A DNA stretch of 64,000 bases from a virus (IMGVR_UViG_3300008267_000092:24022-88021); one strand, 5' to 3'; positions 5-42,207 are shown, numbered from the stretch's first letter. Made by a program: numbers and translations. Notes: generated by a model from the sequence alone, not told the origin.

Positions 5-3000
5 ATGTTTACAGGAGATGTTGCATTTTATAAGAATATGATTGATTATAAAAAACGTGTACCTGCAACATATACGGATGGATTACAGTTGCGATTGAAA
101 AAAGGTGAAGAACATTTTACAGTAGCTACAATTGATAAGGTAGAAATAGGTTCACCATACCATAAGGAATTAGTTGAAATGTTAGGTGTTGAAGGTGCTA
201 AACCATATAGTGAAGGTAAGATAAATTCTGCGGATGCTCAAGCTTGGATAACACCTAAAAGGTGGAAGTTTTTAGTTGAACGTTTAGGTAAATGGACTTC
301 GGATCACGACTCATTGTACACTAAAATGATGTCTGATGGTGATCAGTCTTATACAGCTAAAGAATTAAAGATTGCAGCGCAACCTTTAAAAGGTGTATAT
401 TTTTATATGAACGGTAAAACACCAACGTATCTTAAATACTCACAAGCTGTATTGACACCTAGTATGTTAAAAAACTCACCTGGTTTACGATCTATTTATA
501 GTCAAATGGATAAACAAGGTGTTGACGAATTAATTACATTAGATGGCTTTAAAACAGGTTCTCCAAGACCTACAAGAGTACATAATGTTGACGGTACAGT
601 AAAATCTGAAATATCATTTAATACTGAACAGTTATCAAACTATGGTTGGAAATTACAACAAGATTTACCTGTTAAAACATTTAAACAAACTGACGTAGGT
701 TCTCAAATTCAAAAAAATATTTTTGCAGGTTTAATTCACAATTTAGAATTAGCAGGATTTAATTTAGATGGTTCTGAAACAAACGGACAAACAATCTCAG
801 ATAATATTGTAAATATTGTTTCAGGTTTAGTAGATAAAGGTATTTTAGACATTAAAGAGGAATTTGATGTATTTAGAAACGGTGAAATTAAAAACATTAA
901 GGGTTTTTATAAAGCACTTGTTCGTGAGTTGGAAAAAAGAGGTGGTTCTAAGAATGTTATAGACGCTTTAAATAAACAAACTGCATTATATGGTATGCCA
1001 CAATCAATGGATAAGATTGTTAGTGTATTTTCATCTATAATGAATGATCGTTTAATTAAAATTAAAACAAACGGTGGTGCATTTATACAAATGTCTAACT
1101 TTGGTATATCTAAAGAAGAAGGTGATAGTAAAGGTATTTTATGGAACCCTGATATTGAAAATGGTAGTACAACTTATGAACCACGTATTTATACTAAAGA
1201 AAATGGTCGTAAAAGTATAAAACCTGCAGGTATATTAATTTCAGGTTCATTTATTGCAAAATATATTCCTGATTATAAAAAATATAGTGCTGAAGAACTT
1301 TTTAAAGGTAAAGATGGTAATCCACCTATTATTGATAAAAAAATATTAGAAAATTTAGTTGGTTATAGAATTCCTAATCAAGGACTGTCATCAAATGATG
1401 CTTTAGAAATTATAGGTATTTTACCTGAAGAAAACGGTGATACTATTGTAGCATATACAGGTATTACAACTAAGACAGGGTCGGATTTTGATATTGATAA
1501 GATGTACTTAATGATGCCTAATTATTCTTTAGAGGATGATAGATTGGTATATACTACATACGATTCAACGTTATCAAATAAAAAACAATCTAAAGAAGCA
1601 TTACAAAATAGGTTAATTGAACTATATAAATCAGTTTTAACACATCCAAAAGTTATTAAAGATGTAATGACACCTTTAGATAATGATGTCTTAAAAGACG
1701 ATATCGTAGACTTAATACCTTCAGAGTCTTCAGGAACAATGTTTCATTTTGACGCATTTAATGATATTAAATTACGATATGAGTTTATTAATGGTAAAGC
1801 AGGTGTTGGTCAAGAAGCTAATGCTGTAGTTGATGTTAATAGACCTGGTAATTTAAGTATTAATAAATATAATATTGGATGGGGTCATGTTAATGAAAAA
1901 GGTGATACTAAATTAGATAACGAGTATTCTGAAGCATTATCTGAACAAGATTTAAATTATTATAAAGATGCACTTGTTGATATAAAAATAAAAGAGCTTG
2001 AAAAGAAACAGATGCATGTTAATAACGATGTTAGAGAAAAGATAAAAAAAGAGGTTTCTAACTATGTTAATAACGCAGTTAAAAAAATAAAAGTTGGTGA
2101 TTCATTAACTGCGATTCTTAATGCATTTGTGGATATTGCAAAAGATCCTTATATTACAAGAGGTAACTGGACAACATCTACTACAAATACAGGTAACTTA
2201 CTTATACGTGCAGGTGTTCACCCTTTATATGTTACGTCATTTATGGCACAACCTATAATTAAAGAATATATTGAGTATCAAGCAAGTAAAGAATCTATTA
2301 TTACAAAGAATACAGGTGATATTAAAAATAAATTTAAGAAGAATTTAGCAGTAAAGAATCTTGAAAAATTAAACGATAAACATCCTGAGTTATTGAAACC
2401 TTTAGAATTGATTTATCAAAAATTTGCTAAGTCTAATGGTGCTATAAATCCTTTTACAGCATCAAACGCGGCAGAAAGACTTCAAAAAATGTTAGGTAAA
2501 AAAAATACACTATCTGGTGAAGAATTAGAAAATGTATTGATAACATTAAAACGTGAACATGATAGAGTATTTAATGCTGAAAAATTAAATATTACAGATA
2601 GAAAAACTTATAATTTACAACATTATCGTGAACAAATAAAGAATGAGGCTTCTGCAGATTTTCAAATTGCGATATTAGATAAGTTTTACGAATTACAGAC
2701 CGTTAGTAAAGTAGTTAAAGAAAATGTAGATATTTCTAAATTAGATACTAATGGTATGGGTAAAAATGTTAATTCATTATTTAGCACCTTTAATTTAATT
2801 AAACACGTTTTAGATAAGGAGAAAACAGATAGAGTTGGTGTACTTAACGGTTTGGAATCTAAATTTGAAAATACAACTTTAGCTGTATATCATAAAGGAT
2901 TAAAAGAAATTTTAAGAATTGTTCAAGCAAATCCTTTATTATTTCCTCAAGCGGATAATAAAGTTCAAACAATGTTTAATGAGATATCTAATGACCTATA

Positions 3001-6000
3001 TGACACACCTGCAATTGATAAAGATTTAGTAAATGATTTAGAAAAAGAATATTATACTTATGTAATGTCTAATTTTACACCATTTAATTTAAGTTCTGTT
3101 GAAATAAGAAACTTATTAAGTGAATTACCTGTTGAATTTGAAAATTTTAAAAAGGCAAATAAAGGTAAATATGTGGTTATAGATGAGCTTCTAAATAAAT
3201 TTGATAAAAATTTTAAGTTAATAACTTTAAATAACAGAAAAAAATCAAGTTCTTTTGAAGAAAAGTTTACAGATTCTTGGAGAGATTTAATTACAGATCA
3301 TCCTGAATTTGCAGAAAATTTAATTAAATATTCATTTTTAACTTCAGGTTTTCAAATGAATACTAATCAGTTTTTTACATATATTCCCCATGAGTATTTA
3401 TTACAAAATAACATAAATCAATTTATTGTTAATTTTTCTAGACAGGATCAATTCGATTTCCTTGATAAATTTTACTTAAATAACACTGATAATTATAAAT
3501 ATGTACCTAAAGTATTTGATTCTGAAATTCAATCTGAAGATTTAACATCAGGTTTCACTTTAAAACAATCTGATAAAAGTGAAACAGGTAAAGCTCGTTA
3601 TTACGTATCGAGAGATGCTGGTGGAGGTATTTATAAACTAGAAGGGTATGATTCATTTAATAGAGCAATTTATACAAGAATTAAAGCATTAGGTCAAAAA
3701 CGTAAAGGTAGTACAATTGTTGAATATGGTGATCAATTTACAAAATCAAATCTTGAAACTAGTCCTGAATATATCACAAGATTAAAAAATTCAGTAGTTA
3801 CTGAACGTGATAAATATAATCCTAATTTTACTTTAGATAAAATTGCAGATAGAGAAGAAGATGATTCAACTAACGGATTAACTATAGAAGAACCTACTCA
3901 ACCATCTACTAGTATTTCTGAGTTTGATATAGCTGATAAATTATCACCTATAGAACAAAACTTTAAAGATGGTACAGGTGGTAGAAAAATGCAACCACAG
4001 TTTAAAGGTAAATCTACTATGGATCTTATTATATCAGGAGATAGAACTAGAACTACTAGAGCTAAAACTGATATACAAAGAATGACTAAAGATTATGGTT
4101 TATCTAAAATATCAGATCTTGTTGGTAAAGTTATAAGAATGACTGATAATACAGGAAGACAAGTATATACTATGATTACTAATGTAGTTCCATTTACACA
4201 AGAATATCAAGATGCTACGTGGCAAAATGAAGGTTGGGAAAAGTCTGTAACAGATAAACATGTAAATGATTATCCTTATGCAATTGAATTTAAAGTTGTA
4301 GATAAACCTACTCAACCATCTACTACTCAGGTAGAATCAGTTACGACTGAATTAACTCCAGGACAATATGTTAAATATAATGGTGAAACATACATTATTG
4401 TAAAACAGAATGCAAATGGAACATTTCAGATTTTAAATCCTACTTTAGAAGGTCCTTTATCTAAAATATCAGTTTCAAAAGAAAAACTTCAAGCAATCGG
4501 TAAAGAGGCAAAATTGGTTACCTATAAAGGTGTAGAATATTTAGTTACACCTAATAATACAATTATATCTACAGTTACCAATAAGGCGATGAATTGGACT
4601 GAAAATGATGGTAATAGACGTGCTATTTTAGAATTAGCTAATAACAATATCAAATCGTCCGATAAAATTGAAATTCCAACTGTTGAAAAAACTGTAGTTA
4701 GTAAACTTCAAGAAGTTACGATTTTTAAACCTGCAAATAAAGAGCAAGAGGTTGCAATTGAAGCTATTAAGGATTTTATTGAAAATGGTAATCCTAAAGA
4801 GATATTTACTTTAGAAGGTAAAGCTGGTACTGGTAAAACAACGTTAGTTCAAGAGGCATTAGCAGATTCTGTAGAAAAAGGTAAAAATATTCACATTGCG
4901 GCATTGTCACATAAAGCAAAATTAGTTTTAGCTCAAAAATTAGAACAAAGATTTCCTAAAAAAATAAGTAGTAGTAGTATTGCTGGTTTATTAGGAATGA
5001 AAATGAATGAGGAAACTGGTGAGTTTGAAACAGGATTTAGTGAGTTTGAAAGACCTGTAGAATCTGCAGATATTATTGTTATCGATGAAGCATCAATGGT
5101 AAATGAAGAAGCATTATCTTTAATTATGAGTGAAAAAAGATATGGTACTAAAGTTATATTTCTAGGTGATAGAGGTCAATTACCTCCTATTAGAAAATTA
5201 TCGAGTGATGAAATAAGTACAGTATTTGAATCTTCAAACAAAGCAAGTTTAGTTGAACGTGTAAGACAAGGTGAAGAATCTCCAATATTACCATTTGCTG
5301 ATTATTTTTGGGATAATTCAGAATCTGATAAACCTAAAGCGAATCCTATTCCTGAAGGTCAAATAAAAGATTCTTTAACAAGTAAAGGTAATTTAGTATT
5401 TGTAAATAATTTATTTGATGTGTTTGAGGATGTTGTAAGTAGTTTTAAACAGGGTATAGATTCTGGAAACTTCAACATAATTAAAATTGTAACATATAAA
5501 AATGCTACTAGGCAAAATTATAATAAGCAAATTAGAAAATCAATATTTGGAGAAGATGTACCTCAATTTGTGGTAAAAGATCAAATTATGTTTCAAAATA
5601 ATTACATGTCACAAGGTGTTGAATTTTCTAACAGTGATGAATTTTCAATTGAAGCCGTAATAACTTCTGAAAAAAATGGATATAAGGTATTCGATATAGG
5701 TGTTAAAGTAGATCCTACTAAAGATATAATTACTTATTTTTCAGTATTAGCTGAAGAAGATAAGTCTAAATTTAACGAAGAAGTGGCTAGATTATTTGAA
5801 GTGGCTAAAAAAATGGCACCTGGACAACTTAGGAAAATGGCATATAAAAGTGCATGGGCACTTAAAGCTACATTTGCGGAAATAGATTACTCTTATGCAA
5901 TAACATCACATAAATCACAAGGTTCAACATACGATAATGTTATTGTTGATTTAAAAGATATTTATTCTGTAGGTGCAACCACAAACGCATCTAAATCTCG

Positions 6001-34336: not shown

Positions 34337-35245
34337 TTATACGTTTCTTATATTGTTAATAAATTGTTTAACTTTACTTATTCCCTGACTATCATCAGGA
34401 AGTGGTAATTCTTTAAAATAATTGACAGCTCCGTCAAAATACAAAGGACATATTGCACCAGCACCGCCTTCACGACCACCTAATATTTCTAAAAATCTGA
34501 TATTATCTTTAAAGAAAGTTATATCATATCCATAATAGTCAGGTATTTCGTGTCTAAACGGACTAAATAATCCTAAAATTACGTTTGCATCTCTAGCTGT
34601 TAATTTATTATCGGCAAGACCGTCTAATGTAGGTTTAAGTTTGTTAAACTTTTTGTTTTCAATTGATTCTTGAGCCGCGCTCTGCTGTTGAATTACTACA
34701 GGTATATAATTAAATCTATTTCTTAATTTAATTAAATAATCTGACGATAATACAGACATACTTTCATGTAATGATAATTGTACACCGTTACGTTTTTCAC
34801 TTGATATCAATGAAATGTGATCAACTATAATCATAACATATTCATCAGGATCGTTTGGTTCATAATAATCATTTACTTCTGTAAGCTTACCTTCTATTTC
34901 AATCGTACGTTTGTGTAATTTACCATTCGCTAATGCATAATCTCTTACAAGATTAAACATTCCAAAACCATGACGTATGTCATCAATAAATTCAACAATT
35001 TCTTCTATTTTATCAAAATAAACTTCATATTTTGCAATAATGTCTAATATTCCTTGAGATAAAACGTTATCTGCTTTTGTACTTTTAAGGTCTTTTGGGC
35101 TGATTCGTAACCCTTCTTTAACATATAAAATGTTTGCAAATGCGGATAACATCTTTTCTTCTTTAGACATTTCTAATGTAAAATAGAAGATTTTTAATCT
35201 AATATCTAGTTTATTATCTATTATTTGTTGTATTGTATTATACAA
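34337..35245 (-). CDS. DnaB-like replicative helicase, C-terminal portion (motifs H1a-H4) lacking Walker A
   Basis: IFYFTLEMS (H1a), YVMIIVDHISLI (Walker B/H2), QQQSAAQES (H3), ARDANVILGLFSP (H4). Confidence 0.6.
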   Translation of the reverse strand: MYNTIQQIIDNKLDIRLKIFYFTLEMSKEEKMLSAFANILYVKEGLRISPKDLKSTKADNVLSQGILDIIAKYEVYFDKIEEIVEFIDDIRHGFGMFNLVRDYALANGKLHKRTIEIEGKLTEVNDYYEPNDPDEYVMIIVDHISLISSEKRNGVQLSLHESMSVLSSDYLIKLRNRFNYIPVVIQQQSAAQESIENKKFNKLKPTLDGLADNKLTARDANVILGLFSPFRHEIPDYYGYDITFFKDNIRFLEILGGREGGAGAICPLYFDGAVNYFKELPLPDDSQGISKVKQFINNIRNV

Positions 35246-35281
35246 AAATAACCAATCCGCAATTTGTGTTTTCTTTTGAAA

Positions 35282-35752
35282 TTATACAAACCATGTAGTT
35301 TCATCATGACCCATTAACGTTAAAATGTCTTTTAATGAACGTTCACCATTACCTTTTTCTTCAAATTTTGATTTACTATTATTAAAATCAACTAAGTATA
35401 TATAATATTCTGAAGTGTTATTACCAGACTCATACATTACCCATTTTTGTACATCTGGACAAAATAAAAATCTTAAATGCATTTTATTACATATGGATAA
35501 AGGTTTTGTTAACTTTTCAATTTGTGAAGCAATATGTTTTTTTGAAGCATGTGGGTAATAGGTTTTTACAACTGTTAACAATTCATCAAAACTTCTTCTT
35601 TTTTTACCACATTGTGAATTTGTACAATGTACATCGTGATAGGTTTCACAAAAAGTATAATTGTAACTGTGTTGACCCTCATCATAACATCTTTTTAAAA
35701 AAGAAACAATTTTTTCTCTGGGGTGTTTTTCAACGTTTACATATAATTTCAT
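35282..35752 (-). CDS. Cys/His-rich ORF inside the helicase-interrupting insertion (candidate intron-encoded endonuclease)
   Basis: 156 aa, CYDEGQHSYNYTFCETYHDVHCTNSQCGKKRR; located between helicase fragments. Confidence 0.35.
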   Translation of the reverse strand: MKLYVNVEKHPREKIVSFLKRCYDEGQHSYNYTFCETYHDVHCTNSQCGKKRRSFDELLTVVKTYYPHASKKHIASQIEKLTKPLSICNKMHLRFLFCPDVQKWVMYESGNNTSEYYIYLVDFNNSKSKFEEKGNGERSLKDILTLMGHDETTWFV

Positions 35753-36012
35753 ACTATAATTTAATAATTAATTTAACTTGTTTTATTTATTTAATTTTGG
35801 TAGTCGTGGTTATAAAATTAATATTTTATATTTATAGCCTGGACTATCTCTTCATCCACGTAGGATGCTGGACGCTAATAATGTATTACATAACACGCTT
35901 GTTAAACCATTTAGTCTCTACACCTTCCTTATAAGATCGTATAAGGCTTGGCACGGTATTGTCATCTTTCAATGAGTTTCACCGTTTTCATCCAGTTTTC
36001 ATCTAAATATTA
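35753..36012 (-). ncRNA. GC-richer structured segment, candidate group I intron core interrupting DnaB-like helicase gene
   Basis: CCTGGACTATCTCTTCATCCACGTAGGATGCTGGACGCT and CTTATAAGATCGTATAAGGCTTGGCACGG paired-looking segments in otherwise AT-rich DNA. Confidence 0.35.
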
Positions 36013-36219
36013 CTATTTAGCGGAGCAAAACATACCCACTTTACTATTTGCCGAGATAAGGTAATACTTACCTTGTTCTATACCTGGTGATTCTTTCTCA
36101 AATCTTGGAAAACCCCATGGTATGCAGTTAATTTTACCTGATAATAATCTATCTCTACGTTCAGTAATAGATTTAAATACTCTATTATAAAGGCTTTTTG
36201 GTTTATTTAATAAATCCAT
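36013..36219 (-). CDS. DnaB-like helicase N-terminal fragment up to (degenerate) Walker A region
   Basis: SGKINCIPWGFPRFEKESPGIEQGKYYLISANSKVGM aligns to DnaB G..GIPTGF..LD..TGG...G.LIIIAARPSMGKT; ORF stops immediately after. Confidence 0.5.
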   Translation of the reverse strand: MDLLNKPKSLYNRVFKSITERRDRLLSGKINCIPWGFPRFEKESPGIEQGKYYLISANSKVGMFCSAK

Positions 36220-38199: not shown

Positions 38200-38225
38200 T
38201 ATATTTGGATATAGTGCTTATATCC

Positions 38226-38966
38226 TTAATCCAGTATGTTTCCATCTGGCTGGACTATATCATTATTTAAAACTTTAACCCATTTAAAACCATACATTGA
38301 TGGTTTTTCACCACTACAACACGCGTAAATATTATGTACTTTATAGGTGGGATTATCAATTATAATATCCTTTACCTTTTTCCATTCTTTTATTAGTGTT
38401 GTACCGTTTTTAGAATATTGTAAAATTGTGTATTTTGTGTGAATATCCGATACCTTTTTCTTCATTTGTTCTTTTATTTCTGGATTTTCTTTCCAAAATT
38501 TAGATGAAGATTTACTTATTTTAATTCTTTCTTCAGGATTTTCATATCTTTTTTTATGTGAAATACTCATTTTAATACGTGTATTTTCATGACAAATCAT
38601 ATTTGTAGAAGAATCTCTTCTCAAATTGTATCCTAATTTAGAATCTGTTGTTTTGTAAAAATCTATCCAAAACAATTCTTTTTCTTTAATTATTGATTCA
38701 AAATCTTTAATATTTTTATCAATAATTTCAAGTACAAAATATTCAAATTTTTCTTTTCCGTATTTCCACCACGCATTTATAAAATATTGATTTTCTCTTT
38801 TGGGGTCTTTAGCGTTAAGTCCTCCAATATGATTATATATTCGTTGTCTAATATTTATAGATTTTCCAATATATTTTTTATCCGTTTCAATATTTCTAAT
38901 GCAGTAAATACCACAAAGACCCTCATGTAATTTATTTGTTTTCATATAAAATTTTATTTTATACAA
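38226..38966 (-). CDS. GIY-YIG homing endonuclease
   Basis: GIYCIRNIETDKKYIGKSINIRQRIYNH (GIY..YIG..R..H). Confidence 0.8.
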   Translation of the reverse strand: MYKIKFYMKTNKLHEGLCGIYCIRNIETDKKYIGKSINIRQRIYNHIGGLNAKDPKRENQYFINAWWKYGKEKFEYFVLEIIDKNIKDFESIIKEKELFWIDFYKTTDSKLGYNLRRDSSTNMICHENTRIKMSISHKKRYENPEERIKISKSSSKFWKENPEIKEQMKKKVSDIHTKYTILQYSKNGTTLIKEWKKVKDIIIDNPTYKVHNIYACCSGEKPSMYGFKWVKVLNNDIVQPDGNILD

Positions 38967-39222
38967 AGATACATTATTTTGAGGTAATATCCTAATTAAT
39001 TAGGGTAAATTTTACATAAATTTTATATTACTATAGCGTTTATGTGTTTTAAATACTTCCTGTTTAGTCTCTGAACCTTTATCCCATTAGGACACTTGGC
39101 TGCGGATTGACCAATCTTTATCTTTTTTACTATACTGAGGTAATTATTCTCACCACATAGTATGTTACCACCTATGTTTAGTAGATAAAGCTCTAAGGTT
39201 ATTCCCGTCAATTTAAGAAGTT
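38967..39222 (-). ncRNA. GC-richer structured segment, candidate group I intron core upstream of the GIY-YIG ORF
   Basis: GGACACTTGGCTGCGGATTGACC, GCGCCACTTTAACGC; the 70-aa ORF 39023..39235 here is probably not coding. Confidence 0.35.
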
Positions 39223-40194
39223 TTAATTGCGCCACTTTAACGCAATATCTGAGGTCATAATTTGTAAATCATTATCTGTATAATATTGTTCATTTTCATT
39301 AACAGAATGAAGACCTCCAATACCATATGTTAATCTAATATTTGTATTATTGTAATTAACTAAAAGTTCTTTACTGAATGTATCTTTACCATTTAATATT
39401 TCTAACCATAAATTTTGAAATATTGGTAATTTAAATTCAGGGTCAAAACCTTTTAAGATTTCATTTAAATACAATGTAGGTTTTTCATATCTTGTATTTC
39501 TGACTTCATTTATCTTTCTAGATGTTATCTTACAATAATCTGATAATAAAGCTTCTGATGCAATTTTTGGTGCATCCCAAGACCAACAATTTAAATTATA
39601 CTCTTTAATAATATTACCTCTTAAACGAATTTCTCCCTCCATTTCTAAAGTTAATAATTCTAATATACCTAAGTCGTGGGTATAATTATAATATCTTAAC
39701 TTAGGGAGATCTTCTAAAGATAATATAGAGTTTGGTTTAAATGGTAATTCTTGTACAACAGGATAACCTAATTGAATACCTAAAGATTTTAAACTTATCT
39801 TTTTAGAAATTCTTAACATTTTTGACCAATATGCAAACAAATCTATATCAATCCATTTAGATTTCATATATTTAATTTGTTTAACATCTTCGTCAAAAAT
39901 GTCATCTATTATTTTATCTGAGAAATATTTTAATTCTAGACATATATTTGAATATCCTAAGTACTTCAAATTTTCATAATTTTTAACTAAATACTTGACA
40001 ACCATGTTATCGTAATGTAATCCGTTAAAACTTATTAAAAATCCAGTATAACTTTTAAAAAATCCATATATTTTATCTATATCGTTTCTTTCTTCAGATA
40101 TTTCATAAAATGTAATTTCTTTAGTGACGAAATCTTTTATACCAACACAGAAATAATTTTTGTAACATTCTATATCGTATAGTTTTTTATTCAT
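39223..40194 (-). CDS. DNA polymerase N-terminal fragment with 3'-5' exonuclease motifs
   Basis: YDIECYKNYF (Exo I DxE), FNGLHYDNMVV (Exo II N..YD). Confidence 0.55.
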   Translation of the reverse strand: MNKKLYDIECYKNYFCVGIKDFVTKEITFYEISEERNDIDKIYGFFKSYTGFLISFNGLHYDNMVVKYLVKNYENLKYLGYSNICLELKYFSDKIIDDIFDEDVKQIKYMKSKWIDIDLFAYWSKMLRISKKISLKSLGIQLGYPVVQELPFKPNSILSLEDLPKLRYYNYTHDLGILELLTLEMEGEIRLRGNIIKEYNLNCWSWDAPKIASEALLSDYCKITSRKINEVRNTRYEKPTLYLNEILKGFDPEFKLPIFQNLWLEILNGKDTFSKELLVNYNNTNIRLTYGIGGLHSVNENEQYYTDNDLQIMTSDIALKWRN

Positions 40195-41730: not shown

Positions 41731-41788
41731 CGTCTCCAAACATCATAGGATATACCCTGAGTTTGGAGACGGTGGGATTCGAACCCAC
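41731..41788 (-). pseudogene. tRNA 3'-half remnant (T-arm + 3' acceptor strand) fused to an 11-bp hairpin in the 5' leader of the HNH gene
   Basis: reverse complement GTGGGTTCGAATCCCAC-CGTCTCCA...; CGTCTCCAAAC pairs with downstream GTTTGGAGACG; no D/anticodon arm upstream. Confidence 0.5.
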
Positions 41789-42207
41789 GTCGATCAATGC
41801 GTTTGTTATATAATTTTATACAGCTTTTTGTAGTATTTAATCTTTAATGTCCCTTAAACACTACTAAATGTGGACAGCTATGGCAATGTTATACTCTAGC
41901 CAGTGTTGAGTTTGATTTGGGATTAGCGCACACGCGAATTCTAATTTACCAAATCATTTTAAACTATGCTGCCATTAATACTTCTTCTTTAGAAGAGTTA
42001 ATCAATGAAAAAACTTTAGCCATATTGGCTTTTGCTTGATTTTTGCCGTTTAAAATATTCACCTTAGTTTACAGTTATCTCTCTGGCTGAATTATATAAT
42101 TACTGACACAACCTCAAAGCCAGTCGTCCCCTTATTAATTGTTTAAAGTACAATCATAAACTTATTATTAGAAGGTGACACTTAATGTAATCACCTTCTA
42201 TAATTTA

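Follow-up and report, generated by a model that had tools for sequence, protein, structure and literature searches.

The 64,000 nt stretch IMGVR_UViG_3300008267_000092:24022-88021 (the window; positions are counted from its first letter) is assigned to a crAss-like phage and carries, on the minus strand between positions 34,337 and 36,219, a gene for a predicted DnaB-type replicative helicase which is interrupted within its Walker A motif. The interruption is very probably a self-splicing group I intron, which separates the G codon from the K codon in the Walker A GKT. This intron contains an open reading frame (ORF) coding for a protein of 156 aa, here called ORF156. A mobile group I intron in the DnaB-type helicase gene of a crAss-like phage, with ORF156 as cargo, is the best joint explanation of the data, and we consider it highly probable. 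The ribozyme and its placement are ordinary; phages have long been known to carry group I introns in conserved motifs of their DNA-metabolism genes. The ribozyme part matters mainly for annotation. What departs from the known kind is the cargo, which belongs to a large unannotated family of proteins of ~150 aa, encoded within introns and also free-standing by the helicase gene.

Exon 1 of the helicase gene (36034..36219, minus strand) comprises 62 codons, ends with the residues SANSKVG and has U36034 as its last base; the N-termini of uninterrupted homologs match it residue for residue. Exon 2 (34337..35272, minus strand) comprises 311 codons and a stop codon, starts with KTQIADW and supplies the remainder of the Walker A motif and the later motifs. 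An earlier note on this DNA had described an ORF at 36013-36219 that stops at the Walker A motif and a helicase ORF that resumes at 34337-35245. The first description is correct up to ISANSKVG, but there is no stop codon after the subsequent M: according to the ORF listing and to direct reading, the 68-aa ORF (36219-36013, minus strand) continues for six codons into the insert and ends with YYLISANSKVG-MFCSAK-stop. The second is correct in that the 302-aa ORF (35245-34337, minus strand) represents the C-terminal part of the helicase, but its open frame starts farther 5', extending to a TAA at 35284-35282. This upstream extension encodes F Q K K T Q I A D W L F L, and exon 2 begins at position 35272 with the Walker A codons AAA ACA (K T). 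The insert has a length of 761 nt (36033-35273) rather than the ~770 bp originally estimated.

Only at one junction, U36034/A35272, is the peptide K-V-G-K-T obtained while the 5' cut is preceded by U and the intron terminates in G. Each exon consists of a whole number of codons, and their joining results in a helicase of 373 aa without a frame shift. The junction peptide of the spliced helicase (SANSKVG/KTQIADW) is the same in uninterrupted homologs which show 75-80% identity, and the spliced junction SANSKVGKTQIADWLFLYN is that of the intron-less proteins P0001 and P0004. On the DNA level, intron-less alleles have AAAGTTGGT followed by AAAACACAA, and the predicted ligated-exon junction is AAAGUGGGU followed by AAAACACAA. 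The corresponding site of the intron-less helicase gene from the related phage L015 is TCAGCTAACAGTAAAGTTGGT followed by AAAACACAAATAGCTGATTGG.

A search of 5.8 billion proteins with the spliced helicase returned >2,000 homologs, with E-values of ~1e-198 for uninterrupted matches. The best full-length homologs (75-80% identity, 368-374 aa) are uninterrupted and contain ISANSKVGKTQIADWLFLYN, which is exactly the predicted ligation product. All 12 intron-less homologs that were aligned are single chains across the junction. The nearest relatives (89-94% identity) are annotated solely as C-terminal pieces of 301-302 aa and are therefore split likewise. In public assemblies, gene callers have split the helicase into two "hypothetical proteins". 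The spliced protein matches Pfam DnaB_C with 35.6 bits (cut-off 27); neither fragment alone has a match in Pfam, and the DnaB_C threshold is passed only after the exons have been joined. DnaB and G40P helicase structures from the PDB align across the junction, with the GKT matched. The N-terminal domain of DnaB is absent from the spliced protein. Judged by its sequence, the split gene encodes a DnaB-family (SF4) replicative helicase, the Walker A GKT of which is restored by the predicted joining of the exons.

The insert shows the features of a group I intron. In a local scan, the Rfam model Intron_gpI (RF00028) matches positions 36044-35826 with 67.1 bits (gathering score 50; E = 1.7e-16), and the alignment is full length, covering all 253 model positions. 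The earlier note had proposed to check the insert against group I and group II intron models, and the outcome is a match to group I. Its view of a self-splicing-intron-like interruption is upheld by this score, by covariation, and by an exact canonical junction which restores the GKT. From the Rfam match and the reading of the junction, the intron extends from A36033 to G35273 on the minus strand. The corresponding intron of the related phage L013 obtains an identical Rfam score. A scan of the whole window with default filters and gathering thresholds reported a transfer-messenger RNA (tmRNA) alone and missed both this intron and a second one, which is described below; in this AT-rich window, group I introns were found by local Rfam scans with laxer filters. 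Negative results from default whole-window Rfam scans of AT-rich genomes are unreliable with respect to introns.

According to the Rfam model alignment, the ribozyme core (P1-P9) is located at 35826-36033 on the minus strand. Its G+C content is 36%, compared to 28.6% for the window, and it corresponds to the GC-rich, pairing-prone stretch which had already been recognized in the earlier note. The paired elements, all on the minus strand, are P2 (36018-36014/36009-36005), P3 (35995-35989/35874-35868), P4 (35985-35980/35958-35953), P5 (35975-35971/35966-35962), P6 (35952-35950/35924-35922), P6a (35946-35942/35931-35927), P7 (35916-35913/35845-35842), and P8 (35867-35863/35857-35853). A variable insert of 35-38 nt is found between P7 and P3' (35912-35875, minus strand), where introns of subgroup IA hold P7.1/P7.2; its length varies among relatives.

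Direct reading of the sequence identifies an internal guide region at 36022..36032 (minus strand). A P10 of 6 bp is formed by intron nucleotides 2-7 (UGUUUU, 36032-36027) and the start of exon 2 (AAAACA, 35272-35267). Intron nucleotides 8-11 (GCUC), which are part of the guide GCUCC (36026-36022), pair with the end of exon 1 (GGGU) and form a P1 of 4 bp. U36034 (position -1) is opposite G36026 (intron nucleotide 8), the canonical U.G at the cut. This U.G pair and the three adjoining pairs are kept in five of five sequences. In phage L018, the guide is GCCCA instead of GCUCC, resulting in a perfect P1 of 5 bp with the U.G retained. The 3' end of the intron is CAAAAG in the window and alike in L003, L010, L013, and L002; in L018, it is CAUACG, which precedes AAAACA.

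For the covariation analysis, we used an alignment of six sequences and a hand-drawn P1-P8 structure, with slid helix partners and 500 shuffles as controls. In the core helices, 97.7% of the cells are paired over the six sequences, compared to 33-48% when the partners are slid. Compensatory changes which affect both sides were found in eight pairs (two each in P3, P5, and P6a, one each in P6 and P8), and none of the 500 shuffles reached this number. P4 and P7 are invariant in this alignment and hence uninformative on covariation. RNAalifold agrees with the hand-drawn core structure.

We propose that the transcript of the replication module would fold, that free guanosine would attack after U36034, and that the freed end of exon 1 would then attack after G35273, upon which the exons would be ligated. 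Translation of the ligated mRNA would result in an active helicase, and unspliced RNA would give merely a stub of 68 aa without the catalytic lysine. ORF156 would be translated independently of the helicase.

A helicase without any splicing, either assembled from two polypeptides or being a decaying pseudogene disrupted by an insertion, might be suspected from public assemblies, where the two halves are annotated as separate proteins. We regard this as extremely improbable. The break is within the P-loop, between G and K, and no start codon precedes L72 in exon 2; without splicing, the catalytic lysine could therefore not be translated. The insert has a complete group I core with covariation. 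The exons have an omega value (ratio of nonsynonymous to synonymous substitution rates) of 0.08-0.10, which indicates strong purifying selection, and a pseudogene is therefore excluded. The 12 aligned intron-less homologs, taken from the >2,000 found, are single chains. The earlier note had named homologs consisting of two polypeptides and a pseudogene remnant as scenarios contrary to its view; neither agrees with single-polypeptide homologs and with the omega of the exons.

An intein, a group II intron, translational bypass, and a helicase of two polypeptides were also considered and rejected: the helicase frame meets a stop codon after six codons of the insert, no match to a Hint domain was obtained, a complete group I core is recognized in the insert, and the break is inside the P-loop, before the codon for the catalytic lysine.

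One of the helicase homologs is labelled "Steigviridae replicative DNA helicase", and the only relative of the intron ORF from a named phage is encoded by Cellulophaga phage phi14:2 (Crassvirales, Steigviridae). By these sequence relationships, the window originates from a crAss-like phage of Steigviridae-like affiliation (environmental/marine type) which is related to phi14:2. A megablast search of the region against 50,697 deposited phage records gave no match.

Introns from related metagenomic phages (L013, L003, L010, L012, L002, L005, and L018) were compared. The helicase intron is present at the identical site in L013, L003, L010, L012, and L018. Phage L013 shows 92-99% identity to the window over 7 kb. 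Between these two, identity amounts to 97.7% for the ribozyme core and 95.5% for the intron ORF, compared to an average of ~83% for the first 840 nt of exon 2, after which identity rises to ~100%. The synonymous divergence (dS) is 0.074 for the intron ORF and 0.84 for exon 2. The intron has thus diverged much less than the surrounding exons and has its own, more recent history. The presence of one young intron in two old helicase alleles is what horizontal spread would be expected to leave behind, and it points to mobility.

When positions 34430-36219 of the window are compared with L013, exon 1 together with ~840 nt at the start of exon 2 stands out as a divergent island (~80-85% identity). 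On both sides of this helicase island, and in the intron, the two sequences are 96-100% identical. This makes the helicase gene a candidate hot spot of recombination.

An additional ORF-less group I intron of ~291 nt (Rfam 90 bits) occurs in L013 (2917-3208) and L003 (1-98). It is located 9 nt upstream of the site at which the window carries its intron and is absent from the window. In L013 and L003, a mini-exon of 9 nt (AAAGTGGGT) is left between the two introns, within the codons for Walker A.

The intron ORF is located downstream of P9 (35282..35752, minus strand), and 9 nt separate its stop codon from the 3' splice site. The earlier note had called it an ORF of unknown family, which agrees with the lack of a match in Pfam, PHROGs, NCBIfam, and PADLOC. 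Neither did a profile search of PDB sequences with the ORF156 family give any match at E <= 10. When 66 family members were scanned singly against Pfam and PHROGs, no consistent family emerged. A word-indexed search had retrieved only four relatives. An exhaustive profile search retrieved at least 647 cluster representatives (50% identity) at E <= 1e-3, of which 140 are at E <= 1e-10. Most family members have a length of 135-180 aa. A search with the family profile found no other member within the 64-kb window.

The description as Cys/His-rich applies to the copy in the window (6 Cys, 8 His) but not to the family, where only C43 (72%), C48 (90%), and C98 (98%) are frequent; the other Cys residues of the window copy are not common, and no conserved His was found among 145 members. 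The conserved columns in these 145 members are Y4, T37, D40, C48, R53 (100%), S54 (99%), D/E57, C98 (98%), and K103. A zinc-finger or His-Cys box protein was considered and rejected, the His residues being outside the conserved columns. A structure prediction from five sequences was unusable (predicted local distance difference test, pLDDT, 49.9), and an alignment of 66 sequences was used instead. The resulting AlphaFold model has a pLDDT of 94.9 and a predicted template modelling score (pTM) of 0.89. A Foldseek comparison of this model with the PDB found nothing. The model weakly resembles winged-helix DNA binders and regulators, and its only convincing structural neighbour is the uncharacterised protein g061 from phi14:2. 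As modelled, the fold is essentially new, and it is plausible that its core is a winged-helix-like nucleic-acid binder.

In relatives which lack the intron, members of the ORF156 family are free-standing and occur in several copies around the helicase gene. Phage L015 has three or four copies, one of which overlaps the stop codon of the helicase gene; L017 has copies on both sides of the helicase gene, and L006 has two copies upstream. Protein g061 from phi14:2 (YP_008242285.1, annotated as hypothetical protein, 184 aa) is also free-standing and is encoded among nucleotide-metabolism genes. Its relationship to ORF156 is evident from sequence (tblastn, E = 3e-8) and from structure (Foldseek, E = 3.9e-10; template modelling score 0.71). 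When the window is compared with L003, exon 2 is 94.6% and the ribozyme core 94.9% identical, whereas the intron ORF is only 71.7% identical on the nucleotide level and ~54% on the protein level. The ORF is far more diverged than exons and core and has therefore been replaced independently of the ribozyme.

The introns of further relatives hold additional ORFs. The introns of L002 and L005 contain an ORF of 197 aa and a member of the ORF156 family in their 3' extensions, and that of L002 carries yet another family member, located upstream of P3. In L018 (JGI Ga0377190_000106, a 101.6-kb contig), the intron has a length of ~2.46 kb (about 1509-3965) and contains four ORFs (142, 224, 199, and 152 aa). 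A family member is located between P2 and P3, the 224-aa ORF is in the loop of P5, and the 199-aa ORF as well as another family member follow P9. None of the four L018 ORFs has a recognisable domain, and the L018 intron is invisible to the default Rfam model. The phages form a natural series on the gain of ORFs, from no intron via an intron with one ORF and the added ORF-less intron 9 nt upstream to introns with two to four ORFs.

A second unannotated family (197-201 aa) travels with the ORF156 family, both within introns and free-standing. It is represented in L002 (507-1100), L005 (312-905), L018 (2875-3474), L015 (5578-6183), and L006 (5877-6476) and is absent from the window. The ORFs of 197-199 aa have only an N-terminal sub-threshold match to DUF6501. 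No informative Pfam domain was found in the longer or fused members of the ORF156 family nor in the 197-199-aa and 224-aa intron ORFs.

Being multicopy, free-standing, swapped, and stacked, the ORF156 family would fit the behaviour of selfish mobile genes, which is circumstantial evidence. Our best guess, held at somewhat less than even odds, is that ORF156 may be a new kind of homing protein which promotes the DNA-level spread of the intron or of itself. The earlier note had suggested a novel intron-encoded endonuclease. The word "novel" is justified, as ORF156 belongs to no known family, but an endonuclease signal was found neither in the sequence nor in the predicted fold: ORF156 matches no motif or profile of the LAGLIDADG, GIY-YIG, HNH, His-Cys box, PD-(D/E)xK, or EDxHD type. 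A role as novel endonuclease is possible, though less likely than not. The farthest-reading proposal, namely that ORF156 represents a new and widespread class of phage homing or mobility proteins, which has a winged-helix-like fold and a Y/T/D/C/R-S/C/K constellation instead of a nuclease motif, and through which both its own genes and group I introns would spread among crAss-like phages, is one that we rate as rather unlikely.

Several observations weigh against a mobile group I intron with ORF156 as its cargo, some concerning the ribozyme and others the ORF. P1 of the window is short, with 4 bp in its canonical register, and a competing register of 6 bp, which leaves U-1 unpaired, is favoured by the Rfam alignment. 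A search for a helix across the ORF which would close the ~550-nt 3' extension found none, and duplex energies were no better than those of shuffles; P10 and the terminal G are the only candidate features by which the distant 3' splice site may be joined to the core. As to the ORF, the family has no conserved acidic or His cluster typical of nucleases, and no nuclease fold was found in the model. An omega of 0.37-0.54 relative to close relatives indicates only moderate constraint. Moreover, the ORF-less second intron of L013 varies in presence, so that such polymorphism can be explained without an ORF.

The intron could be real and ORF156 an ordinary small DNA-binding protein from an early or replication module, for instance one with a regulatory or host-takeover role, which recombined into the 3' extension and is tolerated there. 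We take this as a serious possibility, though one that falls somewhat short of an even chance. It would agree with the mostly free-standing occurrence of the family in replication or early modules of crAss-like phages (phi14:2 g061, L006, L015, L017, and L020), with a fold model that resembles winged-helix regulators only, and with the absence of nuclease motifs; also, copies of the intron in relatives hold unrelated ORFs (197-199 aa and 224 aa), as if they were collecting neighbouring genes. It accounts less well for the several paralogs per genome at shifting positions beside one target gene, for the swapping of ORFs between introns which are otherwise 95% identical, and for the repeated invasion of one ribozyme at three different loops.

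A maturase-like function, with ORF156 binding RNA, aiding intron folding, and offsetting the distance between core and 3' splice site, would make sense of the missing RNA helix at the base of the 3' extension. We nevertheless consider this improbable. Most of the family members examined are free-standing where the helicase gene has no intron, the ORFs in relatives with the same core are only ~54% identical on the protein level, and the neighbouring ORF-less intron of L013 has a complete core.

Should ORF156 have a role in mobility, its family would add a class to the short list of homing proteins, and intron counts for crAss-like phages which are based on endonuclease domains would be underestimates. 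If the proposed new class is real, it would be invisible to domain-based intron surveys and would account for introns which stack up to four such ORFs.

The earlier note took the helicase insert to be the second intron-like interruption of a replication gene in the window, and another one is indeed present. The gene for family-B DNA polymerase (PolB) is split by an insert of 1,023 nt (38217-39239, minus strand) which contains a GIY-YIG ORF (38226-38966). The near-identical relative L013 lacks precisely this insert. The insert has two matches to the Rfam group I model (39261-39049, 41.4 bits, E = 7e-9; 38340-38232, 21.6 bits), both of which are sub-threshold.

The tmRNA gene of the window (41764-42131, minus strand) matches Rfam RF00023 with 55.3 bits (threshold 47), and its tag peptide is GKNQAKANMAKVFSLINSSKEEVLMAA according to ARAGORN. 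The same program found no tRNA genes in the window. Genes resembling tRNAs but having long insertions (103-122 nt) were observed in L001 (3237-3343 and 3389-3510) and L005 (4068-4170). They are located downstream of a Sak4-like gene and match the Rfam tRNA model with 31-40 bits.

Phages of the T4 type carry group I introns of subgroup IA in td, nrdB, and nrdD/sunY, and in the nrdD/sunY intron the ORF is 3' of the catalytic core. Among these, the nrdD/sunY intron would be closest to the helicase intron. In both systems, a group I intron of known or predicted self-splicing ability resides in a gene for nucleotide or DNA metabolism of a lytic phage, interrupts the coding region of a highly conserved active-site motif, and varies in presence among close relatives; both have their ORF outside of the compact core and an extra segment between P7 and P3'. 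The differences are that the host gene codes for a DnaB-type helicase of a crAss-like phage, that ORF156 is neither of the GIY-YIG nor of the HNH type and matches no endonuclease family, and that the helicase intron of relatives holds two to four ORFs in three loops.

Free-standing homing endonuclease genes are known to invade introns, as exemplified by the seg and mob genes of T-even phages and the model of Bonocora and Shub. Like these, the ORF156 family occurs free-standing beside its target gene and also inside the intron of that gene, and it is multicopy, patchy, and swapped independently of the ribozyme. Unlike these, it has no known nuclease domain or activity. The only relative of ORF156 in a named, cultured phage, g061 from phi14:2, is similar in sequence and in fold but is longer (184 aa), free-standing, and outside of any intron.

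A high density of group I introns has been described for the Delta and Zeta groups of crAss-like phages in the genes for the major capsid protein, PolB, primase, and ATP_43b (Yutin et al., 2021, PMC7886860). Those introns were detected via endonuclease domains. An intron with a domain-less ORF would be missed in this way. The phages belong to the same order as the phage studied here, but DnaB is not among these host genes, and the window is closest to Steigviridae such as phi14:2. The P-loop of DnaB is a known insertion point for inteins (insertion point b; Novikova et al., 2016, PMC4760082). In contrast to such inteins, the insert in the window has stop codons in the helicase frame and lacks a Hint domain, and splicing is predicted to occur on the level of RNA rather than protein.

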